A stretch of DNA of 58,508 bases from a bacterium (GTDB lineage: Bacteria; Patescibacteriota; Dojkabacteria; JAKAPS01; JAJZLI01), in the NCBI GenBank assembly GCA_021785355.1, contig JAJYFR010000006.1:1-58508 (forward strand), written 5' to 3'. Position numbers and translations under genes: made by a program. The notes below the pieces were generated by a model, which was not told where the DNA came from, ran no database searches, and saw nothing but the letters and a program-made list of their open reading frames with translations. Positions 5,705 to 57,117 of the stretch are shown here, piece after piece. Each line of letters starts with the position of its first letter. The stretch's first letter is position 1.

Positions 5705-5731
5705 TGACCTTAAGTTGCCTAAGATCGAACC
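5705..5731 (-). repeat. att-like repeat of the tRNA-Glu array (site E4)
   Basis: Minus strand GGTTC-N15-AAGGTCA; the 7-mer equals the tRNA-Glu 3' end. Confidence 0.75.
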
Positions 5732-5813
5732 ACTTTTGGTTTGGATTACAAAAATCATAAATAGCACTATATAATTTTACATATATAATCAATGGGTTCA
5801 ATTTAACTATTTA

Positions 5814-6254
5814 CTATTCCATTTTAAAATCTAAAATATATTTAACAGACGTTATTTTATTTTTTACATTATTAAACAATTTTTTATCTGCTGTAATGAA
5901 ATCATATTTCAAAAATTGTGAAAGGGTGACATAGGAGGCATCATAAAAAGATAAATCGTATTTTATTGATATGTCTAATATATCTAAATAGATTTCTTTT
6001 AAATCATAAAAAATTATTCCATAGTTATTAAAGAGATCTAAAGACTCTTTAGCTAAATTGATATCCAGTTTCTTTAATCTCACTGCTTTGGAAAATACAT
6101 TTCCAATCTCATAATTGAGTATTGCAGGGGAATGTAAATTGATTTGTCCTATATCATATAAATGTTTTAATTTTAGTGCAATATCAATATGTTCTTCTTT
6201 GGGGAATTGTAAATACCATTTAACAATAATTGAATTATCTAAAATTAAATTCAT
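5814..6254 (-). CDS. VapC/PIN-domain toxin
   Basis: LILDNSIIVKW, YEIGN, LSFYDASYV, FITADKKL. Confidence 0.92.
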   Translation of the reverse strand: MNLILDNSIIVKWYLQFPKEEHIDIALKLKHLYDIGQINLHSPAILNYEIGNVFSKAVRLKKLDINLAKESLDLFNNYGIIFYDLKEIYLDILDISIKYDLSFYDASYVTLSQFLKYDFITADKKLFNNVKNKITSVKYILDFKME

Positions 6255-6499
6255 CTCAAATCCTTTTTACTTTCTACAACAATATCAGAGAAATCTTTGA
6301 TTTTTAAGTTTTCTCTAATTTTATCTACTTTTGTGCCTATTATTAATCTTTTGCTATTATCATTTATATCTTGCATTCCTCTAAGAATCAACATATTTAT
6401 TACTTTTTGTAAAGATATTTTTTGGTTATACGCAATATCCCGTGCTTGTTTTATTAATACAGTATTTATTCTAATTGTTGTTCTTTCTGTTTTATCCAT
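6251..6499 (-). CDS. Putative VapB-type RHH antitoxin
   Basis: ERTTIRI RHH start; overlaps the PIN toxin. Confidence 0.8.
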   Translation of the reverse strand: MDKTERTTIRINTVLIKQARDIAYNQKISLQKVINMLILRGMQDINDNSKRLIIGTKVDKIRENLKIKDFSDIVVESKKDLR

Positions 6500-6621
6500 A
6501 TTATTATATTAGCATCAGAGTGACATGATGTCAAGATGTATGTTTCAGACATTTCAAACAGCACTTATATCCAAGAGTATCAATACATTCGGGATGTTTC
6601 AAGTGGGGATGCCTTGTTAAT

Positions 6622-6649
6622 TGGGCTTAAGTTGCCTCAGAATAGAACC
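6622..6649 (-). repeat. att-like repeat of the tRNA-Glu array (site E3, degenerate)
   Basis: GGTTC-N16-AAGCCCA; flanked by CAATACATTCGGGATGTTTC, also found next to the tRNA. Confidence 0.7.
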
Positions 6650-6732
6650 TACTTTTGATTTGGGTTAATAAAAGTATAGGAGCTATTTGCACCTAATTAT
6701 TAGGTTAAATATCTTATAATGGCTCTAGTACG

Positions 6733-7158
6733 TCAGCTATTTTCTTTTATTTCTGTAATAGAGAGAGGTAAACAATAATGATCTGTAAACCTTCCAGCTT
6801 GTGTATCAAATTCCTTACCTTTTTGTTTAAGTTCACTACTTCCTGTAGCAATCACTTTAATTTTAAATTCATCATATAGAATTTTAAGTACAACAGTAGC
6901 CTGAGGATGATTCTGTACTTCATCAATAAGAATAATCTTGTGTGTAGCAACAATTTTCTCTAATAAGGATCTATCTGGAACAAATTTTTCATAATCTGAT
7001 GAAAAATCAAAATTAAAAATAGGAACACCAAGTTTTTCAGAAATTTGTTTTAACAACGTTGTTTTCCCAGAACGTCTTGGCCCCCAAATATAGAATGTTT
7101 TATAATCTTTTCCTTGTAAATAGATTTCTATTTCATTCTCAATCAATCTTTTTAACAT
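6733..7158 (-). pseudogene. Truncated AAA_14 ATPase (N-terminal domain only)
   Basis: GPRRSGKTT, IDEVQ, ATGSS, AGR; ends at 141 aa without the C-terminal domain. Confidence 0.8.
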
Positions 7159-7291
7159 AATATTATTAGATCATATTACTATTAAAATGTAAGCTATCAC
7201 TTTGCAAATTAATATTAATATGTAAAGTACAATTAAGATATATCTTAAACTAATAGCTTAACAGTCTAATTTAGTAAAAAATATCCTATGG

Positions 7292-7354
7292 TGACCTTGG
7301 CATGCCTCAGGCAGAACCGCTTTTAGTCTGGATTGTGAAATTAGTGAAAGTATA
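7292..7354 (-). repeat. att-like repeat of the tRNA-Glu array (site E2)
   Basis: 63 bp, one mismatch to 8253-8315; begins with TGACCTTGGC, the complement of the tRNA-Glu 3' end. Confidence 0.9.
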
Positions 7355-7390
7355 CTGAAAAGTCTATTAACAATAATAGAATAATAATTA

Positions 7391-7666
7391 TTAATAAACT
7401 TGATTATGAGTACCTATATCAATAAAAATGAAAATTATATTCTTTTCCTCTTCAAAATATATAACCCTACAATCACCAGCTATAGAGAATACTCTATATT
7501 TCTTCATTTTACCTTCAAGCTGATGATCTCTCAAAACTGGATTAGATTTATCTTCTATAAATAATTCTAATCTTTCTTTATATCTTTTTCTTAAAATATT
7601 ATTATTTTCAATCCTTTTCTTATAATGTTTAACAAATTTCCTATCTAACCTTATTTCTTTATCCAT
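7391..7666 (-). CDS. YafQ/RelE-family mRNA interferase toxin
   Basis: KFVKHYKK...LRDHQLEGKMKKYRVFSIAGDCRVIY...DIGTHNQVY. Confidence 0.92.
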   Translation of the reverse strand: MDKEIRLDRKFVKHYKKRIENNNILRKRYKERLELFIEDKSNPVLRDHQLEGKMKKYRVFSIAGDCRVIYFEEEKNIIFIFIDIGTHNQVY

Positions 7667-7675
7667 TTTGAAATC

Positions 7676-7993
7676 TTAATCATCTTTAACTTGATCTACA
7701 AGTTTATCTAGTTCCTCTGCAGAATGAATTGTATATGCATTACCTCTCTTTATAGCCTCTTTAGTTTCTTTTAGCCTTTTGTCTAAAAATTGTTCATATT
7801 CTTCACTAATATGCTCAACTGTATCCTCAACCATAAAAGAAGTTTTAATCCTACCTTCAGAAAAACTCATTAAAAAAACTCTAACAACTTCTTGTATAGA
7901 ACTATATCCGTAATCTTCAGCAACTTTCTCTGCCTTCTTTTTTAAAGACATTTTCATAGGAATTTGTATTTTTGTATAATCTGTAGTACTCAT
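7676..7993 (-). CDS. RelB-like antitoxin
   Basis: TKIQIPM...LKKKAEKVAEDYGYSSIQEVVRVFL; immediately upstream of the toxin. Confidence 0.82.
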   Translation of the reverse strand: MSTTDYTKIQIPMKMSLKKKAEKVAEDYGYSSIQEVVRVFLMSFSEGRIKTSFMVEDTVEHISEEYEQFLDKRLKETKEAIKRGNAYTIHSAEELDKLVDQVKDD

Positions 7994-8081
7994 GACTTTT
8001 TTATTATTAATGATATTATTATACTCTTTTAATACGAAGCATACAAGGCTGTCTATAGTACCTATACATTACCAATCTCAT

Positions 8082-8168
8082 ATACAGTATTTATTCTAAT
8101 TGTTGTTCTTTCTGTTTTATCCATATTATTATATTAGCATCAGAGTGACATGATGTTAGATGTATGTT
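8082..8168 (-). repeat. Duplicate of the antitoxin 5' end and promoter (6457-6544)
   Basis: 75 bp identical (6457-6531 vs 8082-8156); similarity continues toward the att-like site. Confidence 0.9.
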
Positions 8169-8252
8169 ACTAAATCAAGCATTTCAATCCGCATTTTTAG
8201 CCTATTATATCAATACATTCGGGATATTTCTGTAGTGGGGTGTCGCATCACT

Positions 8253-8315
8253 TGACCTTGGCGTGCCTCAGGCAGAACCGCTTTTAGTCTGGATTGTGAA
8301 ATTAGTGAAAGTATA
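8253..8315 (-). repeat. att-like repeat of the tRNA-Glu array (site E1)
   Basis: TGACCTTGGCG core shared with tRNA-Glu; left flank 8211-8252 similar to 9115-9156. Confidence 0.9.
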
Positions 8316-8414
8316 TAAGCTTTAAATAACTATTAATGTAGCAATAAAAATCTACTTTATGGTACTTGCCGTCAAACAGTTGTAATATTGACAGCAAAGT
8401 GTTAGTATGTTTGT

Positions 8415-8666
8415 ATGGATGAAGAAGTAAAAACAACAATTAGATTACCTAGATATTTGATTAAAGAGTATAAAAACTTTGCAAAGAATACACATACTAG
8501 TATGAATAGTTCTATTGAGACAGCCTTGAAGTATTTCTTATCTAAAGAGATAACTGTACAAATAAGTGTACTCAATAACAATATTAAAAAAATTAAAATT
8601 CCAACTTTTAGTATGGGTAATATAAAAAGAATAGACAGAAAGAGTATTTATGAAGATATTGTTTGA
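8415..8666 (+). CDS. Putative RHH antitoxin (VapB-like)
   Basis: VKTTIRLP start, IDRKSIYED end; overlaps the PIN gene. Confidence 0.82.
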   Translation: MDEEVKTTIRLPRYLIKEYKNFAKNTHTSMNSSIETALKYFLSKEITVQISVLNNNIKKIKIPTFSMGNIKRIDRKSIYEDIV

Positions 8667-9075
8667 TACAAATATATTAGTTTATGCACATAACGCAGAT
8701 TCCCCATTTAATCAAAAAGCATTAGAGTTATATAACACAACGGAAAATATATGCACCACCCAGCAAAATCTTTTAGAGTTCTACTCTGTGATTACCAATG
8801 ATAAAAGAGTAGAGAAACCTGTGACTGATATGAAAGCACAGTCTTTATTAAAATTTTACTCTGATTCGCAAAAATTTAATATCATATCTCCTAATATAAA
8901 TACTATAAAAATATTAAATGAATTAGCCACTCAGTATAGATTTAAGGGTGTTGAAATTTTTGACATATATATTGTTGCTACTATGATTTCTAATGATATT
9001 TCAATAATATATACTGCAGATACAAAAATCTTTAAGAAATTTCAATCAATAACAGTACTAAACCCATTTATCTGA
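8650..9075 (+). CDS. VapC/PIN-domain toxin
   Basis: ILFDTNILVYA, LLEFYSVIT, IFDIYIVATM, IYTADTKIF. Confidence 0.92.
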   Translation: MKILFDTNILVYAHNADSPFNQKALELYNTTENICTTQQNLLEFYSVITNDKRVEKPVTDMKAQSLLKFYSDSQKFNIISPNINTIKILNELATQYRFKGVEIFDIYIVATMISNDISIIYTADTKIFKKFQSITVLNPFI

Positions 9076-9156
9076 ATATAAAGTATCTGTCATATGTAAT
9101 CTACATAGGCATTTCAATACATTCGGGATGTTTCTGTGGTGGGGTGTCGCGTTAAT

Positions 9157-9230
9157 TGACCTTGGCGGGATTTGAACCCGCGATTTTCAGGATGAGAACC
9201 TGGTGTCCTAGACCACTAGACGACAAGGCC
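9157..9230 (-). tRNA. tRNA-Glu(CTC)
   Basis: GGCCTTG...CAAGGTC acceptor stem, D-loop TAGTGGTCTAGGAC, anticodon loop TTCTCAT, T-arm GGTTCAAATCC; no encoded CCA. Confidence 0.95.
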
Positions 9231-9296
9231 ATAACAATAAAGAATTATATCATAAAATAAATTTACTTTTGTTATTTTTTTTAGTAACATAAACTC

Positions 9297-11247: not shown

Positions 11248-11397
11248 ATGATAAACAGAAAATTACAAAAAATAATAATTGAAAAACTTCGTAATTATGA
11301 TAAAAGTATATTGCTATATGGAACAAGACAAGTAGGTAAAACCACCTTAGTAAAAAATATTATCAGTGAATTAGGATATAAAACTCTTTCTATAAAC
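11248..11397 (+). pseudogene. 5' fragment of an AAA_14 ATPase
   Basis: MINRKL...YGTRQVGKTTLV; homology stops at a hairpin element. Confidence 0.8.
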
Positions 11398-11451
11398 TTC
11401 CCACGACCTCACGGTCGGAGTTTTAAGTTCGGAGTCTATAAAGATATTTTT
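11328..11451 (+). repeat. 124-bp target-site duplication, left copy
   Basis: Identical to 13060-13183. Confidence 0.95.
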
Positions 11452-13059
11452 CCTGACTTCCCCAATCAATCAAGGTAGAGATTTGTGATATTGTATTAGA
11501 GCCACAAAATGATAGAAAAATGTTAAAATGGCATACTAATGTATCATCATGTGGAAGATTAGAACTACAAGAACAAATTCTGGGAATATTGCTGTACAAG
11601 TTGTTGAGAATTCTTCTCATAAGGTTAATGTGATAAAGCATATTGGTACAGGTAGAAATGAACAAGAAGTTGAAGATCTTAAGATGCTTGGATATGAATA
11701 TATACAAAAACACAATGTTGATTCAGGACAGATTTCTTTTCTTGATGAGAAAAAGAGTAGTTTAGTATCAATTGATAATTTAAATCTCATTCATACTAAT
11801 CATGCTTTTGCACATGAATATCTATCTCATATATATGAGATTTACGGATTTAATTCTCTAGAAAAGAAACTGCTGCAAGATTTAGTGATTGTAAGAATAC
11901 TTGAACCTGTATCTAAAACAGAGTCAATAGACCTCATAGAAGAGTACTTTAACATTCAATATTCTAAAGGATCTCTTTATCGTAATTTACTCGCGATCTC
12001 TTCAATAAAAGATCAGATTGAAGAGATTGCCGTAGATTATGCAAAGAGAAACCTTAATTTTGATTTCTCTTTGGTATTCTACGATGTCACAAATCTATAC
12101 TTTGAATCTTTTAAATCTGATGAATTTAGAAAGCCTGGTTTCAACAAGGATGGGAAATCTCAACAACCTCAAGTTGCAATAGGATTGGTTGTAAACTCTG
12201 ATGGGTATCCGATATCAATAGAGATCTTTGAAGGTAACAAGTTTGAAGGACATACTTTCATACCTGTAATATTAGCTTTAAAGGAGAAATACAATATTAA
12301 TACTCTCACAGTAGTAGCTGATGCTGCTATGCTATCTTACGATAATATGAAAGCTTTAGAAGAGAATGGACTATCCTTCATAGTAGGTGCAAGGCTTTCT
12401 AAGGTTGACAGTAAGGTATTAGAATCAATAGCAGCAGAACTTAACAGGGAAGAAGGTAAATATATATCAACAGATACAAAGTATGGAACACTAGTTACTG
12501 ATTACTCACGCAAAAGAGCACAGAAAGATAAATCAGATAGGAATAAGCAGATTAGAAAAGCTCAAGCACACATACAGTATCCATCAAAAAATAGAAGACC
12601 TAGATTTGTTAAACAAACAAGTAAAACTGCGCTAGAGATAAATACTGAATTAATAGAAGCAGATGAGCTTAAAGAGGGTATCAAAGGATATTACACGAAT
12701 CTTGTAGATATTTCTCCTCAATTAATAGTTGCAAGATATCATGATTTATGGCATGTAGAGAAATCATTTAGGATTGCAAAAGGTGATCTTAAGGCAAGGC
12801 CAATATACCATAGGAAAAAAGATATGATACTCTCTCATATATTAATTGTTTTCATAGGATTATGTTTATCAAAGTATCTAGAAGTTAATACAGGATTATC
12901 CATAAAGGTCATAAGGAAAAGTATTATGAGGATAGTTGATGTAACAATGCAAGACTCTTTAACTCAACAGTCTTTTACTAAAAGAATGACTATTCCCAAC
13001 TCAGATATATACGCTACTTTATTAAAACTTCTCTAGGCATACTAATTGGGGAAGTCAGG
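11452..13059 (+). mobile_element. IS1634-family insertion sequence (1608 bp)
   Basis: 15-bp terminal IRs CCTGACTTCCCCAAT / ATTGGGGAAGTCAGG; long flanking direct repeat. Confidence 0.95.
11549..13036 (+). CDS. IS1634-family DDE transposase
   Basis: FYDVTNLYFES, GFNKDGK, VVADAAM, YHDLWHVEKSFRIAK, ARPIYH. Confidence 0.96.
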   Translation: MWKIRTTRTNSGNIAVQVVENSSHKVNVIKHIGTGRNEQEVEDLKMLGYEYIQKHNVDSGQISFLDEKKSSLVSIDNLNLIHTNHAFAHEYLSHIYEIYGFNSLEKKLLQDLVIVRILEPVSKTESIDLIEEYFNIQYSKGSLYRNLLAISSIKDQIEEIAVDYAKRNLNFDFSLVFYDVTNLYFESFKSDEFRKPGFNKDGKSQQPQVAIGLVVNSDGYPISIEIFEGNKFEGHTFIPVILALKEKYNINTLTVVADAAMLSYDNMKALEENGLSFIVGARLSKVDSKVLESIAAELNREEGKYISTDTKYGTLVTDYSRKRAQKDKSDRNKQIRKAQAHIQYPSKNRRPRFVKQTSKTALEINTELIEADELKEGIKGYYTNLVDISPQLIVARYHDLWHVEKSFRIAKGDLKARPIYHRKKDMILSHILIVFIGLCLSKYLEVNTGLSIKVIRKSIMRIVDVTMQDSLTQQSFTKRMTIPNSDIYATLLKLL

Positions 13060-13183
13060 ACAAGTAGGTAAAACCACCTTAGTAAAAAATATTATCAGTG
13101 AATTAGGATATAAAACTCTTTCTATAAACTTCCCACGACCTCACGGTCGGAGTTTTAAGTTCGGAGTCTATAAAGATATTTTT
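13060..13183 (+). repeat. 124-bp target-site duplication, right copy
   Basis: Identical to 11328-11451. Confidence 0.95.
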
Positions 13184-13993: not shown

Positions 13994-14015
13994 ACCGTCA
14001 TTATATTAACATTAC

Positions 14016-49024: not shown

Positions 49025-50434
49025 ATGAGAGTAAGAACACGAATTGCTCCATCACCTACCGGAGATCCTCATATAGGAACGATATATCAGGCACTATTTG
49101 ATTATGCATATGCAAAACAAAATAAAGGAAATTTTATTTTAAGAGTTGAAGATACTGACAGAGAAAGATTTGTAGAAGGAGCAACTCAAAAAATCTTATC
49201 TTCTCTTAAGTGGTTTTCTATTGAACCTGATGAAAGTCCTGTGCATGGAGGAGATTTTGGACCATATGTTCAATCAGAGAGATTAGATATATATAAAAAA
49301 TATATTAACGATTTAATATTAAAAAAAGAGGCATATTTGTGTTTTTGTACAAAAGAAAGACTTGATCATATAAGAGAAGAACAAATAAAAAATAAACAAC
49401 AGCCTAAATATGATAAACATTGCTTAAATCTTACAAAAAAAGAGATTGATGATCTAATAAATAAAGGTACACCTTCTGTTGTTAGATTAAATGTCAAACC
49501 AGGAATTGATATTATTTTTAATGACCTTATCAGAGGAGAAATCAAAATTAAGACTGATTCATTTGATGATCAAGTATTATTAAAATCTGATGGATATCCA
49601 ACTTATCATGCAGCAGTAGTAATAGATGATCATTTAATGAAAATAACTCATATTATAAGAGGGGAAGAATGGATATCTTCTACTCCAAAACATATACTTT
49701 TATATAAAGCTTTTGAATGGGATATTCCTATGTTTGCTCATTTATCTTTACTTAGAAATAGAGATAAATCAAAAATATCTAAAAGACATAATAATACATC
49801 CATAGATTGGTACAAAAAAGAAGGATATCTTCCTGAAGCATTAACTAATTATCTTTTATTATTAGGGTGGTCTCATCCAGAAGGAAAAGAAGTATATTCT
49901 TTAGATGAATTTATTAAAAAATTTTCATTTGATAGGGTAAGTAAAGGTGGTCCTATCTTTGATATAGATAAACTTAATTGGATAAATGGTGTATATATAA
50001 GATCTAAAAGTGTTATTGAAATAAAAAAACTTATAAAGCCTTATTTAATATATGATATTGAAAATAAGAAATTAGAAGAGATTATAAAACTTATACAAGA
50101 TAGATTAAAAAAATTATCAGAAATAAATGATTTAATATCATTTTTTGTAGAAACACCTCAAATAGATCAAGAAATTTTGGAAAACATAATATCTAAAGAT
50201 AAAATAGATGAAATATGTGATATATCATATAAAACTATTGAGGATAAAGGTATTAATCGTGACACAGAAGAAACTCTTAGAAATTATGCTATAGAAAAAG
50301 GATATAATATTGGAGATTTCTTTATGATTATAAGAATAGTTACAACTGGTAAAAAAGCTACACCACCTTTATTTGATACATTATCTATAATAGGGAAAAA
50401 AGAAACATTAAAAAGGCTAAAGAATGGGAGATAG
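49025..50434 (+). CDS. gltX: Glutamyl-tRNA synthetase
   Basis: RIAPSPTGDPHIG, RVEDTD, KISKR. Confidence 0.97.
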   Translation: MRVRTRIAPSPTGDPHIGTIYQALFDYAYAKQNKGNFILRVEDTDRERFVEGATQKILSSLKWFSIEPDESPVHGGDFGPYVQSERLDIYKKYINDLILKKEAYLCFCTKERLDHIREEQIKNKQQPKYDKHCLNLTKKEIDDLINKGTPSVVRLNVKPGIDIIFNDLIRGEIKIKTDSFDDQVLLKSDGYPTYHAAVVIDDHLMKITHIIRGEEWISSTPKHILLYKAFEWDIPMFAHLSLLRNRDKSKISKRHNNTSIDWYKKEGYLPEALTNYLLLLGWSHPEGKEVYSLDEFIKKFSFDRVSKGGPIFDIDKLNWINGVYIRSKSVIEIKKLIKPYLIYDIENKKLEEIIKLIQDRLKKLSEINDLISFFVETPQIDQEILENIISKDKIDEICDISYKTIEDKGINRDTEETLRNYAIEKGYNIGDFFMIIRIVTTGKKATPPLFDTLSIIGKKETLKRLKNGR

Positions 50435-50496
50435 TTTAACGGTAAAACGCTACGCTCTGAACGTAGTAAGTCTAGGTTCGATTCCTAGTCTCCCAG
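50425..50496 (+). tRNA. tRNA-Gln(CTG)
   Basis: TGGGAGA/TCTCCCA acceptor stem, anticodon arm CTACG-CTCTGAA-CGTAG, GGTTCGATTCC; overlaps the gltX 3' end. Confidence 0.95.
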
Positions 50497-50576
50497 AAAT
50501 TATCTATAGACTAAAATTCTATGTATGGACATATAAATATGTTTTATTTTCTGTAATTGTTTGATATACTTTAATT

Positions 50577-50756
50577 ATGAGTAAAGAAGAGAATAAGAAA
50601 CTTATAAAATTATACCAAGAGTATAGACAAAGAAAAATATTGAAAGAGGATGTCTTACAATTTTCACGTGATTTTATGCCTGAAATGATTTATCGTACAA
50701 CTAAATTAGAAGGTGAGCCTGTTACAAGACAAATGGTATCTTTACTATTTAAATAA
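50577..50756 (+). CDS. Putative Fic antitoxin (VbhA/FicA-like; not in ORF track)
   Basis: 59 aa MSKEENKK...IYRTTKLEGEPVTRQMVSLLFK; (S/T)xxxEG inhibitory motif; TAATG overlap with Fic. Confidence 0.78.
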   Translation: MSKEENKKLIKLYQEYRQRKILKEDVLQFSRDFMPEMIYRTTKLEGEPVTRQMVSLLFK

Positions 50757-51388
50757 TGGTCAAAAGTGGTACGAAACCTAAAGGCGCAACATCATATAAA
50801 GATACAGCTTTTGGAATTATTTCTCGAGAAGAACTTATTAAGCTTGAGATTGAAGGGATAAAGAGAGGACTAGAATATTTATATGATCTAGTGCAAAAAC
50901 AAGAACAGGTTGCAATTACTTCAGAATTAATAACGAAACTTCATGAAATTTCTTTTGGTTGGATTTTTCCTAAATGGGCAGGAAAATATAGAACAATTCA
51001 AGTAACATTTTCTGATAAAGAAGCTCCACCATATTATCAAGTATCAGAATTAATGTTCAATTTCTCTAAAGATATAGAATCACGGTTACAAAATCTCCCT
51101 ACTCCAGATAAAGAAAACTTTATTTTTGAAATAATATCCTTATCAGCTTGGTTTCAACATAGATTTGTTTTTATTCATCCATTCCAAGATTACAATGGGA
51201 GGACAGCACGAATGCTAACGACTTTCATATTACTACAATTCAAACTACCCTCTATTGAATTAAAAGCAGATACAGGAGATGACAGGAAACAATATCTTAA
51301 AGCAATGAGGAAAGCAGATGATGGTGATTATAAACTTCTTGAAAGACTTATTAGCCGAGCACTAACAGACAGTCTTAATCATATTTAA
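50756..51388 (+). CDS. Fic-family adenylyltransferase toxin
   Basis: WAGKYRT, IHPFQDYNGRTAR. Confidence 0.93.
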   Translation: MVKSGTKPKGATSYKDTAFGIISREELIKLEIEGIKRGLEYLYDLVQKQEQVAITSELITKLHEISFGWIFPKWAGKYRTIQVTFSDKEAPPYYQVSELMFNFSKDIESRLQNLPTPDKENFIFEIISLSAWFQHRFVFIHPFQDYNGRTARMLTTFILLQFKLPSIELKADTGDDRKQYLKAMRKADDGDYKLLERLISRALTDSLNHI

Positions 51389-51457
51389 TTCTATTATTTT
51401 TCATCATATCTAATTTATCTAGTTTTTCAACGGTTGAAATGAGATTTTTAAAAATGG

Positions 51458-51484
51458 GGTTCCACATACGGGACAGCTTTCCAG
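51458..51484 (+). repeat. att-like repeat of the tRNA-Gln array (site Q1, most divergent)
   Basis: GGTTC-N15-TTTCCAG(AAA) versus tRNA GGTTC-N10-CTCCCAG(AAA). Confidence 0.55.
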
Positions 51485-51619
51485 AAAATAATATCTATTA
51501 ATTTATATATTCAATTTATTCTTTTAAATCCGTATGAAATAGCAATTTGCTATGTATGGCAAAGACAATATTAATAATTAATGTTAGAATTCAATCAATT
51601 ATTTTATTGATTAAATAGT

Positions 51620-52357
51620 ATGTATAATATAACTTTATCTGGAAGCTTTAGGAAACATTTAAAAGAGATTGGGGAGGTTAAAAATATTTTTGAGAAAGAG
51701 CAAAACATAATATTATCTCCAAAATTTCTTGATACAAAAAATTCTCAAGAAGAATTTGTTTTGTTTGAAGAAGAAAAAAGTACATCCCCAAAGACTCTCG
51801 AAAATTTACATTTAAATGCAATTTCTAAATCGGATTTTCTTTATTTAGTTAATCCAAAAGGATATATTGGTAATTCTGCTACTATGGAAATTGGTTATGC
51901 AATATCAAGAGGAATTCCTATATATTCATATGAAAAATCTGAAGAATTTATATTAAACTTATATATTGAAAAATATGGAGATCCTAAAGAAATACTCTCT
52001 TATCATAAAAAACATTATGAAAAGAGAAGACAAGATAATTTTTCCAAATCTTTAGGATTAAAAGAATTACAAGAGTATATATCTGTAAAAGTAAAAGAGA
52101 GAGGATTTGAAGATGAAAGTGCAAAAGATTTATTAGTTCTTTTAATGGAAGAGGTAGGAGAGTTTGCAAAAGCAATAAGAAAATATTCAGGAATAAAAAT
52201 AGATAGTGAGAAAAAGGAAAAATATCCAGCTTTGCAAGAAGAAATTGCAGATGTATTAATTTATATAATTGATCTTGCAAATATATTAAATATTGATTTA
52301 GATGAAAGCTATAGAATAAAAGAAGATATCAATGATTCTAGATTTTGGAATAAATAA
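51620..52357 (+). CDS. Fusion of a nucleoside 2-deoxyribosyltransferase-like domain and a MazG NTP pyrophosphohydrolase
   Basis: N-terminus ITLSGSF...HLNAISKSDFLYLVNPKGYIGNSATMEIGYA; C-terminus LMEEVGEFAKAIRK...EEIADVLIY. Confidence 0.85.
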   Translation: MYNITLSGSFRKHLKEIGEVKNIFEKEQNIILSPKFLDTKNSQEEFVLFEEEKSTSPKTLENLHLNAISKSDFLYLVNPKGYIGNSATMEIGYAISRGIPIYSYEKSEEFILNLYIEKYGDPKEILSYHKKHYEKRRQDNFSKSLGLKELQEYISVKVKERGFEDESAKDLLVLLMEEVGEFAKAIRKYSGIKIDSEKKEKYPALQEEIADVLIYIIDLANILNIDLDESYRIKEDINDSRFWNK

Positions 52358-52365
52358 TTATTGAT

Positions 52366-52953
52366 ATGAACAAAATTTTATTAATATCAGGTCCTTCTGG
52401 TATAGGTAAAAGTTATATATTAAAAAAATTGATTTCTAGCTCATCTCAGTATGAAGCTATATTATCAACTACAACTAGAGAAATGAGAGAAGGTGAGTCT
52501 GATGGAATAGACTATGAATTCTTAACTAGAAATGAATATGTTAACTCTAAACAAAAGTTTTTTATGGATAATTATTTTTTTAATAATTTTTATGGCATTA
52601 AGAAAAAAGTGGTAGATGATATTTTGGAAAAGAGAAAAATTCCAGTAGGAATAATTTATACTCCTGTGATTCATCAATTTTTAAAAGCTTATCCAGATGC
52701 TTTAACTATATTTCTATATCCGCAAAACATAGATTTATGGAAAGAAAATTTATTGAAAAGAGATGGAAGTTTAGACAGATATCAATATGCGTTAGATGAA
52801 TTAAGTAAATGGGAAAATGACTATAGTCGATATTATAATAAAGTATATTATATAAATTCTAATAATGATGATAGAACAATAATTAATGAGATCAATCACT
52901 ATTTTGATATTTACAGGGATAGGGAGGGGAGTATAAAGGAAGAATTTCATTAA
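52366..52953 (+). CDS. Guanylate kinase-like protein
   Basis: ISGPSGIGKS, STTTREMREGESDGIDYEFLT, FYG. Confidence 0.87.
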   Translation: MNKILLISGPSGIGKSYILKKLISSSSQYEAILSTTTREMREGESDGIDYEFLTRNEYVNSKQKFFMDNYFFNNFYGIKKKVVDDILEKRKIPVGIIYTPVIHQFLKAYPDALTIFLYPQNIDLWKENLLKRDGSLDRYQYALDELSKWENDYSRYYNKVYYINSNNDDRTIINEINHYFDIYRDREGSIKEEFH

Positions 52954-53053
52954 TAGTCTTGATTGATTTCTTTATATCTATTTCTGAAAATATGTTAGAG
53001 AATAATAAAATACAAGATTTAAAAAAATTTAATAGATACTATAGTAAGTGTTA

Positions 53054-53132
53054 TGTTGTCAAACCATTAAGATTGAGAATGGAAATTGACGAAAACAGGA
53101 GAGTTTTCTATGATCTTAATGGTTTGACAACA
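53054..53132. mobile_element. 79-bp MITE-like element
   Basis: Perfect 20-bp terminal IRs TGTTGTCAAACCATTAAGAT; one end recurs at 4198-4223. Confidence 0.75.
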
Positions 53133-53310
53133 AAATACCTATTTATTGTATTCCTATTCACTAGTACTATTTTGCTACTTTGCGTCGCATTTATATCACT
53201 TGCAAAACATCTTATTAGTAACTGAAATTTTCTTCTAGAAATACGTACCCTTTTTTACTTTCATTATCTAGATTTTAAGATATTTTATATCTCTTATCTA
53301 GGCTACACCC
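53133..53310 (-). pseudogene. IS1595-family left end and transposase N-terminal relic
   Basis: Minus strand reads RISRRKFQLLIRCFASDINATQSSKIVLVNRNTINRYF; upstream end GGGTGTAGCCTAGATAAG. Confidence 0.65.
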
Positions 53311-53345
53311 TATTTTATTCTCTAACTTACACATATCACATTAAA

Positions 53346-53372
53346 AGTTCGAATAATGTCAACAGTCCCCAG
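53346..53372 (+). repeat. att-like repeat of the tRNA-Gln array (site Q2)
   Basis: AGTTC-N15-TCCCCAG. Confidence 0.65.
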
Positions 53373-53475
53373 TTAACTCTTTTCAACCATGTATGAATAA
53401 CTTTTTAGTAAGTAGTTCAAGTTGTTATATAAAAACTGAGATCTATTTTTATTTTGAATATGTTATAATATTTGT

Positions 53476-53760
53476 ATGAATAAAATTAATTACACACTAC
53501 CAGTTTTAATATTTAAGGAAGACGACCTTTTTGTTGCATATACTCCTGCTTTAGATTTATCTACTGTCGGAGATACTTATGATAAAGCATTAAAAAACTT
53601 TCGTGAAGCTAGTGGCATATTTTTTGAAGAAGTTTTAAAAAAAGGAACTTTAGAAGAAGTTTTAATGGAGTATGGATGGAAGAAAACAGGAAAAACTTTT
53701 GAACCACCAATACAGATATCAAGTGAACCTGTTAATATAACAGTTCCAAGCAGAAGATGA
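53476..53760 (+). CDS. HicB-like antitoxin
   Basis: IFKEDDLFVAYTPALDLSTVGDT..KALKNFREA. Confidence 0.88.
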   Translation: MNKINYTLPVLIFKEDDLFVAYTPALDLSTVGDTYDKALKNFREASGIFFEEVLKKGTLEEVLMEYGWKKTGKTFEPPIQISSEPVNITVPSRR

Positions 53761-53978
53761 AACCTATATCATGGAAAGAATTTGATAAATTTCTACTTTA
53801 TGTAGGTTGTATTTATGATAGACAAAAAGGAGATCATAGAATATATTGGAGAAGTGATTTAAAAAGACCTATTGTATTACCCATGTATAAAAATCTCCCA
53901 AAATTTGTTATTAAGAATAATATAAGATTACTTGGGCTTACCAATAAAGAGTATTTAGAAATATTAAAGAAAATTTAA
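53757..53978 (+). CDS. HicA-family toxin
   Basis: RQKGDHRIY, RPIVLP. Confidence 0.9.
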   Translation: MKPISWKEFDKFLLYVGCIYDRQKGDHRIYWRSDLKRPIVLPMYKNLPKFVIKNNIRLLGLTNKEYLEILKKI

Positions 53979-54023
53979 TATAAATTTATACTTTACTGTT
54001 CCAATATATAATATAATTAAGTA

Positions 54024-54755
54024 ATGTATCAGAACAATAAAAATTATTATAGATTTAAATCAATTATTTCTAATTTACAGTTTATTGATAAATCAATATT
54101 GTTAAATAAAGACTTGATTTTAGAAGAAGATAAAGGAATTAAAATTTATTATGCTCCTTTTGAGTACATAAATAAGGATGCAAAAATTATAATTATAGGA
54201 ATTACTCCTGGATTTACTCAAATGCAAATTTCATATCGAGAATTAGTAAAAGGAATAAATAATAATTTGACTGATTTACAAATATTACAGAATGTTAAAA
54301 AAGAAGCTAGTTTTGCAGGAGTTATGAGAAAGAACTTAGTTGAAATGTTAGATGAGTTAAATATTAATACTTATCTAAAAATATCTACTACAGATAAACT
54401 CTTTAAAGAATATAACCATTTGTTACATAGTACTTCAGTAATAAAGTATCCAGTTTTTGTAAATAACCACAATTATACAGGTCATACTCCAAATATTTTA
54501 AAAACTAAAATTTTGTATGATTATATATTTGATGGATTAGGGAAAGAACTTACTTCAATACCTGACGCAATAATAATACCTCTAGGAAAAATTGTCCAAG
54601 ATTCTTTAAATTTATTGATATATGACAATAAAATTGATAGCAATAGGATATTGTTAAATTTTTCACATCCATCAGGAGCTAATGTAAATAGAAAAAATTT
54701 CTTTAATAAAAATAAAAAGCATTATGTTTCTCAGATAGAGAAATTATTTAAATAG
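54024..54755 (+). CDS. Uracil-DNA glycosylase-like superfamily protein
   Basis: YYAPFEYINKDAKIIIIGITPG, IIIPLG, HPSGAN. Confidence 0.75.
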   Translation: MYQNNKNYYRFKSIISNLQFIDKSILLNKDLILEEDKGIKIYYAPFEYINKDAKIIIIGITPGFTQMQISYRELVKGINNNLTDLQILQNVKKEASFAGVMRKNLVEMLDELNINTYLKISTTDKLFKEYNHLLHSTSVIKYPVFVNNHNYTGHTPNILKTKILYDYIFDGLGKELTSIPDAIIIPLGKIVQDSLNLLIYDNKIDSNRILLNFSHPSGANVNRKNFFNKNKKHYVSQIEKLFK

Positions 54756-54778
54756 TGAGTATCATTTCTTACTATTAG

Positions 54779-54805
54779 GGTTCTGACATTGTCCACAATA
54801 CCCTG
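54779..54805 (+). repeat. att-like repeat of the tRNA-Gln array (site Q3)
   Basis: GGTTC-N15-TACCCTG; TATTAGGGTTCTGACAT shared with 57085-57101. Confidence 0.75.
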
Positions 54806-54951
54806 TTGACAATAGTATAAAATTGTCAATGTGTACTACTCAATTATCTTGCTAAATCAATATAAACTTGAAATTTGCTATGCATGGCAAAGACAAAATT
54901 ATAAATAAGTACTACTATAGAGATAATAAAAAATAAGGAGGTGATTATATT

Positions 54952-55080
54952 ATGGAAACATTAGAGAAAGATATAATAACACCATTAGAGTGGTTAACAG
55001 ATGATAATGTTCAAAAAATAACCATGTGGCAAACATATTCTACCCATAAGGATGATGCAGATGATACTAATGATGATTAG
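54952..55080 (+). CDS. Putative graspetide (ATP-grasp RiPP) precursor peptide (not in ORF track)
   Basis: METLEKDIITPLEWLTDDNVQKITMWQTYSTHKDDADDTNDD, 42 aa; strong SD TAAGGAGGTGAT; directly upstream of the ATP-grasp gene. Confidence 0.82.
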   Translation: METLEKDIITPLEWLTDDNVQKITMWQTYSTHKDDADDTNDD

Positions 55081-55157
55081 AATAAATGGTAAAAGAGAAT
55101 AATTAAATATAAAAATAAAATTATTATCTACATTCTTTAATATTATTTTTTGTCTTT

Positions 55158-56984
55158 ATGATACATATAAGAAGAAAATATTATCTTGATATATACAAAG
55201 AGATATTCGTAATTTATTATAATAATGAAAGTGATCAACTTATTGATGAAGTCATTCAATATGTTTATGATAAATGTTTAGATGATATCTTTAAAGAGAT
55301 AGGTAAAATTTTCACATTTAAAGATAATCAATATTATTATGTTATGAAAACCGCAAAAATTGGGGTAAGATATAAACATAGTATTTATGTTTATAAAATT
55401 AATTTTAAACATAAATATAATTTACAATATGAAAAATTATTAAAAGAAATTCCAATGCTCTCTTCTGGTGAACTTATTCCATCCGTCAATGAAATGTACT
55501 TTAATAAAAAGAAAATGTATTTTGATAAAAAAAATCTGAGTTACTTTTCAACATATAAACTTTACAAAGATTTATTAAAGTTAAAATCTAATAAAGATAT
55601 AGAAGAAATATTTAATGGTAGAATAGAAGATTTAATACCTTTTTTAACATATTATAAATTTAGTAAAGTAATTTGTAACCTTTATTATTTAAAGACTCCT
55701 GATGAGAGACTAGATATAATAAAAGAATTTTTAACTTTTCCTTTTAATATTACGTACGATACTTTTTTATCTGAAATAATTGCTGAATTGGCATATTTGT
55801 CATCCATTAAAAAGTACAATGATGTTGCTAATAAATTGTTATCTCAGTTAATTAATAAGATAGAGAATGATGTATATATTCTTGCAGATACACAGATGGT
55901 AACCTTCAAAGGGTCATTTAACGAAAAAAATATTGATAAAATCTACAAATATATTAATAATAAAGTTGATTTATATTCACAAATAGACCCTGGAGGTTTT
56001 ATTGGAATTCTTAATAATCAAGATTTTTTTATATCAGATAAATATAAATATAAAAAAAGAAAGATATTAATTATATCAGAGCAAAATGACCCACATGTTG
56101 AGAGAGTGTTGAGTTTTATTAATCAGAAAAAATATCATGTAGATGTATTTGGTGTTAATGATTTAGAGAATGATGGGTATGTTGATACTCTATCAGAAAT
56201 GACTGGAGAATTTTTTGATACTGACAAAAGACATCATAGAGTATATGATATTTGTTGGTGGAGAAAACCAATATTTATTACTCCTTCTCAAAAATATTTA
56301 AAGAATATAAACCTATCTAATATTGCAAAAAAAGAAAAAATAAATTTTTTAGAAGGAATTATATTAAATATGTCAATAAAAAGTTGGGTGAATCATAAAT
56401 CAGATATGAAAAAAGCTTCAAATAAAATACATCAGTTAAGTCTTATAAGAATGAATATCCCTAGAACAGTAATTACTAATAAAAAGGAAGTCATTAAAAA
56501 AATATTTGAAGATAAGTTTATTATGAAAACGTTGCAATCTCAAAGTTTGGGATTAGAGGATGGTGTATTAAAAACAACTTTAACAAATATTAACGATATA
56601 GATAAAATTGATTTGAATTTTATGCCTGTTATCTGTCAGGAATTTATAGATAAAATTTGTGATATCCGAGTTACTATTGTTGGGAATAAAATATTTGCAG
56701 CTAAAATATTCTCACATTCAGAAAAATCAAAAATAGATTTTAGAACTGATTATAGTAGTTTAACTTATGAAAAATGTAAATTATCAAAAGATATAGAAGA
56801 TGAATTGTTGAGATTAAATAAATATTACAATCTTAATTATTCTGCCATTGATCTTATACAAGATAAAAATGGTGAGATATACTTTTTAGAATTAAATCCG
56901 AATGGTCAATATCTTTGGATTGAAGAGTCATTAACTCTTCCTATTTCAAAGAATATTGCATCTTTTTTAAAAGGAGATAAATAG
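55158..56984 (+). CDS. MvdC/MvdD-like ATP-grasp peptide macrocyclase with an unknown N-terminal domain of about 295 aa
   Basis: ILIISEQNDPH, WWRKP, WVNH..ASNKIHQL, IPRTVITN, QEFIDK..DIRVTIVG, IDFR, AIDLI, YFLELNPNGQYLWIE. Confidence 0.9.
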   Translation: MIHIRRKYYLDIYKEIFVIYYNNESDQLIDEVIQYVYDKCLDDIFKEIGKIFTFKDNQYYYVMKTAKIGVRYKHSIYVYKINFKHKYNLQYEKLLKEIPMLSSGELIPSVNEMYFNKKKMYFDKKNLSYFSTYKLYKDLLKLKSNKDIEEIFNGRIEDLIPFLTYYKFSKVICNLYYLKTPDERLDIIKEFLTFPFNITYDTFLSEIIAELAYLSSIKKYNDVANKLLSQLINKIENDVYILADTQMVTFKGSFNEKNIDKIYKYINNKVDLYSQIDPGGFIGILNNQDFFISDKYKYKKRKILIISEQNDPHVERVLSFINQKKYHVDVFGVNDLENDGYVDTLSEMTGEFFDTDKRHHRVYDICWWRKPIFITPSQKYLKNINLSNIAKKEKINFLEGIILNMSIKSWVNHKSDMKKASNKIHQLSLIRMNIPRTVITNKKEVIKKIFEDKFIMKTLQSQSLGLEDGVLKTTLTNINDIDKIDLNFMPVICQEFIDKICDIRVTIVGNKIFAAKIFSHSEKSKIDFRTDYSSLTYEKCKLSKDIEDELLRLNKYYNLNYSAIDLIQDKNGEIYFLELNPNGQYLWIEESLTLPISKNIASFLKGDK

Positions 56985-57090
56985 CGATAATAAAGATTTA
57001 TTAAATATTCTTAATCTTATTTTATAATAATATAATTTATAATTACTTAAATAAATAGTGATAAGGACTGGGATATGAATTTATTATTAG

Positions 57091-57117
57091 GGTTCTGACA
57101 TCGTCTAAGATACCCAG
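57091..57117 (+). repeat. att-like repeat of the tRNA-Gln array (site Q4)
   Basis: GGTTC-N15-TACCCAG. Confidence 0.75.

Follow-up and report, generated by a model that had tools for sequence, protein, structure and literature searches.

Two arrays of small gene cassettes in the 58,508-nt window (the whole stretch of DNA that was analysed) are probably tandem accretions of small elements at tRNA 3' ends, built by large serine recombinases (LSRs) that target tRNA genes, with the integrase now absent. In the proposed mechanism, the left half of attP (P arm) would carry a T-loop-like (A/G)GTTC 5 bp farther from the crossover than the GGTTC of the tRNA. Judging from the geometry, this +5 shift would be the attP/attB offset of the zinc-ribbon-domain motif, and the crossover would lie in the last bases of the acceptor strand. 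With the crossover there, the tRNA would be regenerated upon integration and repeated insertion would be possible, the next element entering at the tRNA-proximal side; each internal junction would consist of the P arm of one element, a core, and the P' of the next, older element.

The initial annotation listed eight sites, four on the minus strand (5705, 6622, 7292 and 8253) and four on the plus strand (51458, 53346, 54779 and 57091), and all of them are present at those positions and on those strands. Seven are intergenic when open reading frames of at least 60 aa are counted, and the exception, site 5705, is overlapped by a 78-aa frame (5524-5760, plus strand) that is probably spurious. The sites had been described as (A/G)GTTC, a spacer of 15 nt (10 nt in the tRNAs) and a core resembling the tRNA end, and this description held. 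The 5-nt offset proved general: the distance from the start of (A/G)GTTC to the core end was 27 nt in 19 of 21 copies and 28 nt in the other two, compared with 22 nt from GGTTC to the tRNA end, and the 27 versus 22 nt spacing holds across five P-arm sequence families. The shared core is 6-7 nt long. On the Glu side it reads AAGGTCA at three of the four sites and AAGCCCA at 6622, which is also the site with the 16-nt spacer, and the Gln-side cores (TTTCCAG, TCCCCAG, TACCCTG and TACCCAG) only resemble the CTCCCAG of tRNA-Gln. The repeats also extend farther than had been noted. The motif scan that had been suggested gave no signal, since the loose grammar ([AG]GTT[CT] + N15 + the exact 7-mer of any tRNA) was not enriched genome-wide, with 11 matches outside tRNAs at spacer 15 versus 0-12 at spacers 6-21. 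The signal is in repeat families rather than in a position weight matrix of the loose grammar.

Array 1 is headed by tRNA-Glu(ctc) (9156-9231, minus strand), in which GGTTC to discriminator spans 22 nt and whose T-loop GGTTC and 3' end would form an attB-type left half-site. Directly 3' of it lies the P' block that starts cassette 1 (9079-9155, minus), followed by the cargo (8316-9078), an antitoxin (8415-8666, plus) and a PIN/VapC toxin (8650-9075, plus). Junction 8253 (8175-8315, minus) comprises a P arm with flank (8260-8315), the core AAGGTCA (8253-8259) and the P' of the next cassette (8175-8252, minus). The cargo of cassette 2 (7355-8174, minus) is a YafQ/ParE-like toxin (7391-7666) with an upstream partner (7676-7993). 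At junction 7292 (7292-7354, minus), the P arm and core AAGGTCA are followed by a right flank, CCATAGGATAT, which differs from the usual P' and is similar to the sequence 3' of tRNA-Glu in genome G001. Cassette 3 (cargo 6673-7291, minus) contains a truncated AAA_14 ATPase (6733-7158) and ends at junction 6622 (6545-6672, minus), where the P arm with the 16-nt spacer and the core AAGCCCA (6622-6628) precede the P' of cassette 4. The latter (cargo 5768-6544, minus) carries an antitoxin (6251-6499) and a PIN/VapC protein (5814-6254). Junction 5705 (5683-5767, minus) retains a P arm, the core AAGGTCA (5705-5711) and a short P'-like remnant (5683-5704). The segment 2778-5205, in which no P arm could be recognised, is a probable decayed distal section of array 1; it has an AAA_14-DUF4143 ATPase (2778-3956), a DDE transposase fragment (4804-5205) and, between them, a YafQ/RelB pair (4242-4786).

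Array 2 lies on the plus strand and is headed by tRNA-Gln(ctg) (50425-50496). The cargo of cassette 1' (50497-51377) includes a Fic/DOC protein (50756-51388). It is followed by the type B junction (51378-51484), whose reverse complement keeps to the reading frame of an LSR on contig C1 for about 35 codons (GKLSRMWNPIFKNL...*); after these codons come the P arm GGTTCCACATACGGGACAGCT and the core. Cassette 2' (51485-53345) encodes a MazG-domain protein (51620-52357), a guanylate-kinase-like P-loop protein (52366-52953) and an 88-aa frame, and the type C junction behind it (53346-53372, AGTTCGAATAATGTCAACAGTCCCCAG) has an identical 35-nt copy on contig C4. Cassette 3' (53373-54778) carries a HicB-like protein (53476-53760), HicA (53757-53978) and a UDG-superfamily protein (54024-54755). 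Two type A junctions (54779-54805, GGTTCTGACATTGTCCACAATACCCTG; 57091-57117, GGTTCTGACATCGTCTAAGATACCCAG) enclose cassette 4' (54806-57090), whose 608-aa protein (55158-56984) has no Pfam match. Cassette 5' (57118-58508) encodes a Fic/DOC protein (57193-58185), and the array continues past the end of the contig, where there is a 99-nt overlap with contig C13.

The repeat families of the sites occur genome-wide and in all nine genomes of the family. In the Glu-type unit, about 50 nt are conserved 5' of the core and 55-80 nt 3' of it; the downstream (P') block is common to both tRNA-Glu genes, including tRNA-Glu(ttc) on contig C1, and also follows internal sites. With nhmmer models made from the window sites, and counting copies that were not used in model building, we found additional Glu-type copies at C11 14689 (E 1.9e-17), C1 67398 (1.8e-15) and C1 68690 (3.3e-12), and Gln-type copies at 13 additional places (E <= 0.05). 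The Gln-side sites of the window form three subfamilies, A (54779 and 57091), B (51458) and C (53346), and Gln-type junctions show no conservation on their P' side. The type A motif (at most one mismatch) was present in 9/9 genomes of the family, with no match for the reversed control.

The initial annotation stated that neither array encodes a recombinase within the window, and this was borne out, the only related feature being the DDE transposase fragment of array 1. In the genome as a whole, a single LSR is accompanied by just two Xer-like tyrosine recombinases. The LSR gene (C1 27976-29715, 579 aa, on another contig than the window) contains a Resolvase domain and, scoring close to the Pfam cut-off, a Recombinase domain. 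At its 3' end the gene passes antisense through tRNA-Gln(ttg), so a gene of the kind called for by the suggested check, with its 3' end over such an att site, does exist. In LSRs of this type, attP lies within the last ~30-60 codons of the gene itself; once integrated, the gene points towards the tRNA, which the reading frame enters antisense. The flank of site 51458 links this enzyme to the window: it encodes the missing C-terminal tail of that LSR. In the type B copies, the reverse complement is open in the LSR frame for 35-38 codons in 3/3 copies matched by the script's pattern (which missed a fourth copy, on C4), including 51378-51484, and the tail is conserved at the protein level. Since the reverse complement of 51378-51484 continues the LSR frame, this junction is the distal (attR) end of an LSR element that has lost its recombinase gene here. 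The type B P arm and the P' of the C1 LSR together make a perfect 8-bp inverted repeat, GGACAGCT-TCCCAGAT-AGCTGTCC. For array 1, no LSR of the Glu/Lys group was found in the genome, and no tRNA-Glu adjoins any LSR locus fetched from the 11 genomes of the order, so its enzyme is a putative one.

Relatives show that an LSR clade targeting tRNAs is widespread in CPR/Patescibacteria. LSR relatives were found in 40 of the 221 genomes of the class, and a tRNA lies within the LSR flanks at 24 of 28 fetched class loci. Of the fetched database homologues, 17/21 have G(F/L/V)EP, the antisense T-loop, as their C-terminus, and in metagenomes an opposite-strand tRNA was present at the LSR 3' end in 66 of 80 loci (Glu 20, Gln 17, Lys 15, Ser 7, Arg 4, others 3). 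Near-identical LSRs with identical P' occur at tRNA-Lys and at tRNA-Glu, and the tree placed the LSR P0001 in the Gln/Ser group. LSR-bearing elements of other genomes have the +5 offset at 4/4 of their clear attR sites, and one attP-like junction (L111) has it as well. The claim that the sites behave as LSR attachment junctions is supported, and the general offset fits the 5-bp displacement of the zinc-ribbon motif in attP relative to attB in the site comparison of Rutherford et al. 2013 (PMC3783163), where the ZD motif occupies positions 16-24 in attP and 11-19 in attB.

Cassette content varies among relatives and the breakpoints fall at the sites, as the initial annotation had anticipated. 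Cassette 4 is the only cassette beside tRNA-Glu in G003 (89% identity versus 70% for the flanks), the HicAB part of cassette 3' recurs at 92% identity in G005 and G002 arrays, its left breakpoint lying at a distance of 17 nt from the core, and cassette 4' shares 82-84% identity with copies in G001 and G003 that lie at other loci, with flanks at 71%. At least seven Glu-type cassettes in the genome combine unrelated cargo with the same conserved ends, which are also conserved in four genera. Unrelated cargo, conserved ends and cassettes that are 82-92% identical between genera, compared with 70-71% for flanking core genes, suggest selection on the cassette ends and transfer of cassettes between genomes. 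These same observations argue against static relics, that is, LSR elements that integrated once each, lost the recombinase and have been immobile since, with variation arising by homologous recombination between repeats. We consider this unlikely, although decay is plain. A full LSR, a 70-codon stump and complete loss can all be seen: G002, of the same genus, has a second LSR that overlaps tRNA-Gln(ttg) and, next to tRNA-Gln(ctg), the tRNA of array 2, a P0001-like LSR that is reduced to a 70-codon stump and has the same P'. Some junctions are degenerate (6622 with core AAGCCCA, C11 13932 and G006 6398), one cassette on C5 has no P arm, and what look like joints in other samples result from cross-mapping between paralogous sites. 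The decay stages favour decayed, accreted elements over purpose-built cassettes.

Accretion by a tyrosine recombinase, either the host Xer-like pair (in the manner of Xer-exploiting elements and pdif modules) or a lost phage-type integrase, is somewhat less likely still. An LSR needs only 2-bp core identity, and 6-7 nt are typical of tyrosine recombinases; the shared core therefore counts against the LSR reading and would be the overlap region of a tyrosine enzyme. Of the 11 genomes of the order, 9 carry two Xer-like genes (five matches in G003 and one in G005). However, the genome contains no phage-type tyrosine integrase, what is encoded in the type B flank is the tail of an LSR and nothing linked to a tyrosine integrase, and the same tRNAs in the class and in metagenomes are adjoined by LSR genes instead. 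We also know of no role for a constant +5 offset of a T-loop-like motif in tyrosine recombinases. Tyrosine integrases classically target tRNA 3' ends, as stated in the abstract of PMC4383910, and tandem accretion is well documented for these enzymes in the relevant parts of 10.1101/2020.12.28.424599 and PMC5704250. Other points that count against an LSR are its absence from the window, the unconserved Gln-type P', the combination in cassette 1' of a P arm of type B and a P' differing from the LSR's own, the unenriched loose motif, the lack of LSR remnants in the cassettes (tblastn, 12 LSR C-termini) and the lack of circular junctions or signs of trans excision among the contigs. To our knowledge, recombination between attP and attL is not a reaction of canonical LSRs, so an element could enter at an already occupied tRNA only with relaxed recognition of the right half-site.

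That the repeats are regulatory or RNA elements (tRNA-like processing signals, terminators or promoters) or pseudo-tRNA debris is very improbable: the sites are intergenic, share GGTTC with the T-loop and have a tRNA-like end, 54765-54830 folds better than shuffles (z -2.79), and some P' blocks lie upstream of cassette genes, one with a promoter-like match inside (6534-6506), but 6/7 sites tested fold no better than shuffled sequence, the 5' acceptor strand is absent so that no minihelix is possible, Rfam found only the two tRNAs and RNase P, there were 0 terminator-like sites and no enrichment of promoter-like matches (32 versus 26.8 +/- 4.8), and presence or absence of cassettes between genomes breaks at cores. 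In addition, one and the same downstream cassette follows tRNA-Ser(cga) on C5 and a P arm on C2, and these two loci diverge precisely at the core.

The window elements have lost the recombinase gene and remain as 0.7-2.3 kb cassettes with conserved ends and toxin-antitoxin, Fic and nucleotide-metabolism/defence cargo, which makes them cis-mobilizable-element-like; a resident or incoming LSR may still move them in trans. The initial annotation proposed an integron-like and possibly undescribed system. Neither idea survives comparison: no defining integron feature is present, and the concept is already covered by Dehalococcoides ssrA islands, SCC arrays, cis-mobilizable elements and tycheposons, the first three of which the arrays resemble. 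As in integrons, small cassettes rich in toxin-antitoxin genes form ordered arrays, each ends in a recombination site, and new ones probably join at the array head. Unlike integrons, the genome has no IntI, there is no attI/Pc platform, no attC-like folding was found at the sites, and the chemistry would be serine-type on double-stranded sites. Staphylococcal SCC offers a parallel: SCC and ccr-less pseudo-SCC use serine recombinases, insert at the 3' end of a conserved gene (rlmH/orfX) and form tandem composite islands bounded by short direct repeats, and recombinase-less members, which occur here too, can be moved in trans there; unlike here, the target is protein-coding, CcrA/CcrB act as pairs and there is no tRNA mimicry.

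In the sections of McMurdie et al. 2011 (PMC3146451) on the Dehalococcoides ssrA islands, an LSR (DsiB, CcrB-like) likewise lies on the reverse strand beside attL, the islands enter a small structured-RNA gene at its 3' end, direct repeats of that 3' end split the tandem islands, and 15 of 31 islands lack an integration module and are read as cis-mobilizable. They differ, in the same sections, in using one tmRNA gene rather than several tRNA species and a 20-bp exact repeat rather than a T-loop mimic with +5 offset; here attP is inside the LSR coding end, the cassettes (0.7-2.3 kb) are much smaller, and a second small serine recombinase was not seen. The cis-mobilizable elements treated in the pertinent part of Guedon et al. 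(PMC5704250) have lost integration genes and kept attL and attR, and in tandem accretion a new element enters the att site that bears the target-gene end, but these are tyrosine-integrase ICE/IME of Firmicutes, usually of many kilobases. Prochlorococcus tycheposons, in the portions of 10.1101/2020.12.28.424599 describing them, also form tRNA-adjacent islands that grow by successive integrations with older elements pushed inward, leave partial tRNA copies and degenerate remnants scattered, and carry adaptive or defensive cargo; there, however, the repeats are true partial tRNA copies, and 910 of 937 have a lineage-specific tyrosine recombinase, the rest an LSR. The phage LSRs of A118/LI, Bxb1 and phiC31, as far as they are covered in the site comparison in PMC3783163, have a similar domain set, half-sites of ~25 bp versus 20 bp and a distal ZD-type motif shifted by 5 bp between attP and attB. 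Unlike these, the enzymes here target tRNA genes, with several tRNA species per enzyme and attP inside the integrase gene, and tandem insertion would imply tolerance of a foreign right half-site. The arrays appear to represent a variation on a known way of building genomic islands, here at tRNAs and with small defence and toxin-antitoxin cassettes.

The two arrays lie at tRNA-Glu(ctc) (9156–9231, minus strand) and tRNA-Gln(ctg) (50425–50496, plus strand) of the window, which is contig C8 of the 13-contig assembly of this genome (G000; 883 kb, 26% GC). All eight sites reported in the initial annotation were present, four in the Glu array (8253, 7292, 6622, and 5705) and four in the Gln array (51458, 53346, 54779, and 57091), and all junctions shared the orientation of their tRNA. 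The sites in the window exceed short motifs: they are members of longer repeat families. The Glu-type unit consists of an upstream part of about 50 nt ending with GGTTC-N15-AAGGTCA (the P arm, or left attP half, plus the 7-nt core) and a downstream P′ block of 55–80 nt (A.T.A.GCGACACCCCAC...CCCGAATGTATTGA), which is also present directly after tRNA-Glu. With a profile of the four window copies, the P′ block was found after both tRNA-Glu genes of the genome, and extra Glu-type copies were found on C1 (two, downstream of the second gene, tRNA-Glu(ttc)) and on C11 (two). The Gln-side sites formed three sequence subfamilies, named A (54779 and 57091), B (51458), and C (53346), and 13 further Gln-type copies were located elsewhere in G000, many of them at contig ends, where contigs share a 127-nt overlap and branch. 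The P arm of the Gln-type sites was also seen with a Ser-type core near tRNA-Ser genes. From the start of (A/G)GTTC to the end of the core, 19 of 21 P arms measured 27 nt and the other 2 measured 28 nt, compared with 22 nt in the tRNAs.

The short grammar proposed as a detector did not perform as such: when [AG]GTT[CT], a spacer, and the exact tRNA 7-mer were scanned genome-wide, spacer 15 was not enriched over other spacers, so the evidence for the sites rests in the repeat families. The type A motif was found in 9/9 genomes of the family, and the reversed control gave 0. The Glu-type P arm had no matches in the viral or the metagenome contig sets, and its matches among genome contigs were in two related genomes only (G002 and G003). 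The single type A match in the viral contigs (L022) is a chance one, situated within a gene of a phage with 48% GC. That the sites are an RNA element was rejected, because 6 of 7 sites folded as single-stranded DNA no better than dinucleotide shuffles, no Rfam family matched them, and a terminator scan found 0.

In large serine recombinase (LSR) systems, attP forms an imperfect inverted repeat that flanks a central dinucleotide, attL is not a target for canonical enzymes, and the half-turn offset between attP and attB has so far been established with a few phage enzymes. The core common to site and tRNA was 6–7 nt here, and an LSR needs less shared core identity than that. When the type B P arm was joined to the P′ of the genome's own LSR, a perfect 8-bp inverted repeat was obtained (GGACAGCT-TCCCAGAT-AGCTGTCC). 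The inverted repeat of the Glu-type unit, judged by eye, reached only 6/8 (TGAGGCAT / ATGCGACA), the right sides of Gln-type junctions were variable, and type A and C junctions had no conserved right half. At the far ends of LSR-bearing elements in other genomes, (A/T)GTTG was displaced by 5 nt, away from the core, relative to the tRNA GGTTC in 4/4 clear attR sites. Rutherford et al. (2013) place the ZD motif of the half-sites at positions 16–24 in attP and 11–19 in attB, which is a 5-bp shift, and the +5 offset of our P arms relative to the tRNAs fits these positions, in line with the attP/attB geometry first suggested for the 5-nt difference. If the central dinucleotide is taken as GT of AAG[GT]CA, GGTTC would occupy positions 24–20 in the Glu P arm and 19–15 in tRNA-Glu; at Gln sites, the inverted repeat would centre on CA of CCCAG, one position off. 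The tRNA T-loop is likely to be the zinc-ribbon-domain motif of the natural sites.

Neither LSR nor tyrosine integrase genes were found in the window, which agreed with the initial annotation that neither array encodes a recombinase. In total, G000 has two Xer-like tyrosine recombinases and one LSR. Both Xer-like genes are on contig C3, away from the arrays, and two such genes are found in 9 of the 11 genomes of the order (G003 had 5 matches and G005 had 1). The LSR (P0001, 579 aa) is encoded at C1 27976–29715 and faces tRNA-Gln(ttg), and its final ~27 codons are the antisense of this tRNA; an LSR gene with its 3′ end over such a site, as had been sought outside the arrays, is thus present. 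Of the LSR domain set (N-terminal Resolvase domain, Recombinase domain, and zinc ribbon with coiled coil), its Resolvase domain scored 38.7 bits, over the Pfam cut-off, and its Recombinase domain scored 22 bits in one search and 18.5 in another (cut-off 21.1). No zinc ribbon was called by Pfam in P0001; that of the G002 LSR was at the cut-off, and that of a database homologue (P0014) was weak.

P0001 heads a 15-kb element that ends at the type B site C1 14328. Also encoded at this locus (C1 14000–30300) are a 1101-aa methylase of the Eco57I/MmeI type, a 1160-aa PLD-SNF2 helicase, an HTH regulator, and a DUF3644 protein, and the whole looks like a defence island carried along by the LSR. About 107 nt are conserved among type B sites. 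In the 3 copies matched by the script pattern, which missed the fourth copy (C4), their reverse complement is open in the LSR frame for 35–38 codons (GKLSRRWNPIFKNL...stop) and conserved at the protein level, and the type B flank within the window encodes the LSR's C-terminal tail. This open frame means that the excised LSR gene crosses attP and that integration swaps its C-terminus, and the coding tail marks window positions 51378–51484 as the far end of an element without its LSR gene. LSR-bearing relatives at tRNA-Gln(ttg) are found in G000 and in its sister genome G002, where a second LSR overlaps this tRNA; a P0001-like LSR, reduced to a stump of 70 codons and carrying the same P′, adjoins tRNA-Gln(ctg) of G002. 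These loci make up a decay series from whole LSR gene to stump to nothing.

G000 yielded no LSR for the Glu arrays, and among the LSR loci retrieved from the 11 genomes of the order, none adjoins tRNA-Glu. By eye, the Glu-type P′ resembles LSR 3′ ends, a hint that it may be derived from one. A coding relic was rejected as the identity of this block, since no frame was open across all copies, and tblastn of 12 LSR C-termini against the cassettes gave nothing.

Relatives of the LSR were found in 40 of 221 genomes of the class, and 24 of the 28 fetched class loci had a tRNA in their flanks. The C-terminal G(F/L/V)EP, which is the antisense of the T-loop, was present in 17/21 fetched database homologues; P0014 terminates as ...CRWNPI..., resembling the tail of the excised form. 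An opposite-strand tRNA was located at the LSR 3′ end in 66 of 80 metagenome loci (Glu 20, Gln 17, Lys 15, Ser 7, Arg 4, and Asn, Ile, and Trp 1 each). The remaining 14 comprised 7 that stop at a contig end and 7 without tRNA, among which two had GFEP tails and one had an attP-like junction with 27-nt spacing. A search for attR in 33 metagenome loci with at least 3 kb beyond the LSR gave one match, apparently by chance, and the 10-kb flanks were probably too short. A quick tree of 54 proteins separated a Gln/Ser group, which includes P0001, from a Glu/Lys/Arg group (SH-aLRT 100 each). Near-identical LSRs with identical P′ (L124, L125, L126, L128, and L131) were found at tRNA-Lys(ttt), tRNA-Glu(ttc), and tRNA-Glu(ctc), and another near-identical pair (L136 and L137) at tRNA-Lys and tRNA-Arg, which indicates that one enzyme reads features common to several tRNAs. 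The array-bearing tRNAs of G000 (Glu, Gln, and Ser) are among the clade's commonest targets. We found no description in the literature of an LSR clade targeting tRNAs in the Candidate Phyla Radiation (CPR); the word "tRNA" is absent from the main text of a large LSR survey preprint, whose supplements may bear on the clade.

The comparison of cassettes between relatives came out in favour of the sites: cassette content differs, and the breakpoints are at the sites. In G003, which belongs to a different genus, tRNA-Glu(ctc) is followed by cassette 4 alone (window 5704–6606), with 89% identity to the window copy compared with 70–71% for the flanking genes, and the breakpoints are sites 5705 and 6622. 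After tRNA-Glu(ttc), Glu-type junctions numbered five in G002, two in G006, and none in G001. Cassette 4′ of the Gln array was found at other loci of G001 and G003 with 82–84% identity (flanks 71%). HicAB of the window is matched at 92% identity in arrays of G005 and G002, with the left breakpoint 17 nt from the core, and the order in G005 is tRNA-Gln(ctg), A, B, HicAB, A. In G000 itself, a 260-nt stretch that follows tRNA-Ser(cga) on C5 is repeated on C2 after a P arm (98.8% identity), and the break is exactly at the core. Contig ends of G000 (C3 end, C4, C7, C10, C1 start, and the window ends) share overlaps of 99–127 nt and fork at type A junctions. That the assembly is interrupted at the variable parts of the arrays suggests coexisting strains with differing cassette content.

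The comparison with public runs for excision joints used contigs only. Two samples (X4 and X5) had a joint 6606→8240, which skips 1633, and a third (X7) had 8239→6626, which goes back 1614; these were rejected as reciprocal excision products because the additional letters in them correspond to two paralogous sites, C1 68690 and C11 14740, and they were read as cross-mapping. The joint 4522→10838 had only 21 on one side. The joint 6541→9144 of X7 (side 83) reproduces an arrangement like that of G003, and its source may be that species. No circular cassette junctions were found in contigs from other samples, which is no evidence either way.

The cassette cargo is defence and addiction genes. The Glu array carries two VapBC pairs, a YafQ-type pair, and a truncated AAA_14 ATPase; the Gln array carries two Fic proteins, MazG-domain, guanylate-kinase-like, and UDG-superfamily proteins, HicAB, and a 608-aa protein without a Pfam match; and a sister array on C1 carries an EcoRI-like methylase with a GmrSD/HNH nuclease, and NUDIX. 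At least 7 Glu-type cassettes in G000 have unrelated cargo and the same ends. Cassette 1 of the Glu array is coded opposite to the strand of the others, and one promoter-like match is located upstream of cassette 4, such matches not being enriched. A stretch of 75 nt at the start of cassette 4 (6457–6531, promoter region and first antitoxin codons) is 100% identical to 8082–8156, an orphan copy within cassette 2 just past junction 8253; the duplicate points to mosaic exchange of cassette heads.

Other repeats were also recorded. An insertion sequence (11324–13183) with a 495-aa DDE_Tnp_1 transposase (11549–13036) and direct repeats of 128 nt (11324–11451 and 13056–13183, 99% identical) appears to sit inside an AAA_14 ATPase gene (fragments 11248–11478 and 13544–13993), and an 81% identical copy is at a contig end (C6 77241–78829). 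An inverted repeat of 120 nt (4082–4201 and 4984–5103, 92% identical) encloses the YafQ/RelB pair (4242–4786) together with the first part of a DDE transposase fragment (4804–5205), and may be a small composite or MITE-like remnant. The window also has a full-length bacterial class A RNase P RNA (38909–39225, minus strand, 185 bits). Very long, internally repetitive coding regions on C1 (89–100 kb), C11 (1–9.4 kb), and C13 (13.4–16.3 kb), with hundreds of self-matches at 63–78% identity, are probably giant repeat-rich surface proteins and were left out of the repeat analysis. At tRNA-Pro(tgg), a 48-nt direct repeat (96% identical) starts in the last bases of the tRNA (C1 46745–46792) and recurs 3.5 kb downstream (50249–50296); this second copy is without a GGTTC-type P arm, so it may represent a different kind of island at another tRNA.

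The observation made in the initial annotation was confirmed, and its interpretation was supported only in part. We consider it possible, but rather doubtful, that the arrays are a non-autonomous serine cassette system, in which mini-elements of 0.7–2.3 kb with a ~50-nt P arm and a 55–80-nt P′ would be captured and excised in trans at several tRNAs by a promiscuous, T-loop-reading LSR clade. If this were true, CPR bacteria with genomes below 1 Mb would gain a reservoir of defence and toxin-antitoxin genes open to shuffling, comparable in function to the integron but chemically different, and LSRs reading a motif in nearly every tRNA gene would be candidate broad-host integration tools. Mobility in trans would make the arrays a second, mechanistically independent cassette-array system; if the cassettes are not mobile in trans, the arrays are still a clear case of accretion and decay. 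The arrays show how variable islands with toxin-antitoxin, Fic, restriction-modification, and nucleotide-modifying genes are housed in reduced genomes, and they account for the assembly breaks at these places. Targeting of tRNA genes is, in textbooks, the business of tyrosine integrases; in these bacteria with very small genomes, a large serine recombinase clade found across metagenomes does this job, each integration rewrites the integrase's own C-terminus, and the family has a conserved, near-universal target.

Among known systems, the Dehalococcoides ssrA islands are the closest: an LSR lies beside attL, repeats of the tmRNA 3′ end delimit the tandem islands, and half of the islands have no integration module. 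Cis-mobilizable elements are excised or transferred along with, or by, autonomous ones. Their tandem accretion shares with our arrays the direct orientation at the 3′ end of the target gene (here a tRNA), the att boundaries, the lack of an own recombinase, and autonomous (here LSR-bearing) relatives using the same target. SCC arrays, cis-mobilizable elements, and tycheposons follow the same logic; tycheposons, however, are equipped with a replication module and a tyrosine recombinase specific to the lineage, whereas our arrays have no tyrosine integrase and the associated enzyme is an LSR. Integrons have an IntI-type tyrosine recombinase next to attI at the array head, attC sites that are imperfect palindromes folding as single-stranded hairpins, and promoterless cassettes with a common Pc promoter. 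An integron was rejected for G000, which has no IntI and only the two Xer-like enzymes, neither near the arrays, and whose sites do not fold like attC; of the original reading, the LSR part stood, as the sites behave as LSR att junctions, but the integron likeness did not. What is new compared with these systems is a serine recombinase clade targeting tRNAs in CPR bacteria, the use of multiple tRNAs, an attP inside the integrase gene, a T-loop mimic with a +5 offset, and very small cassettes.
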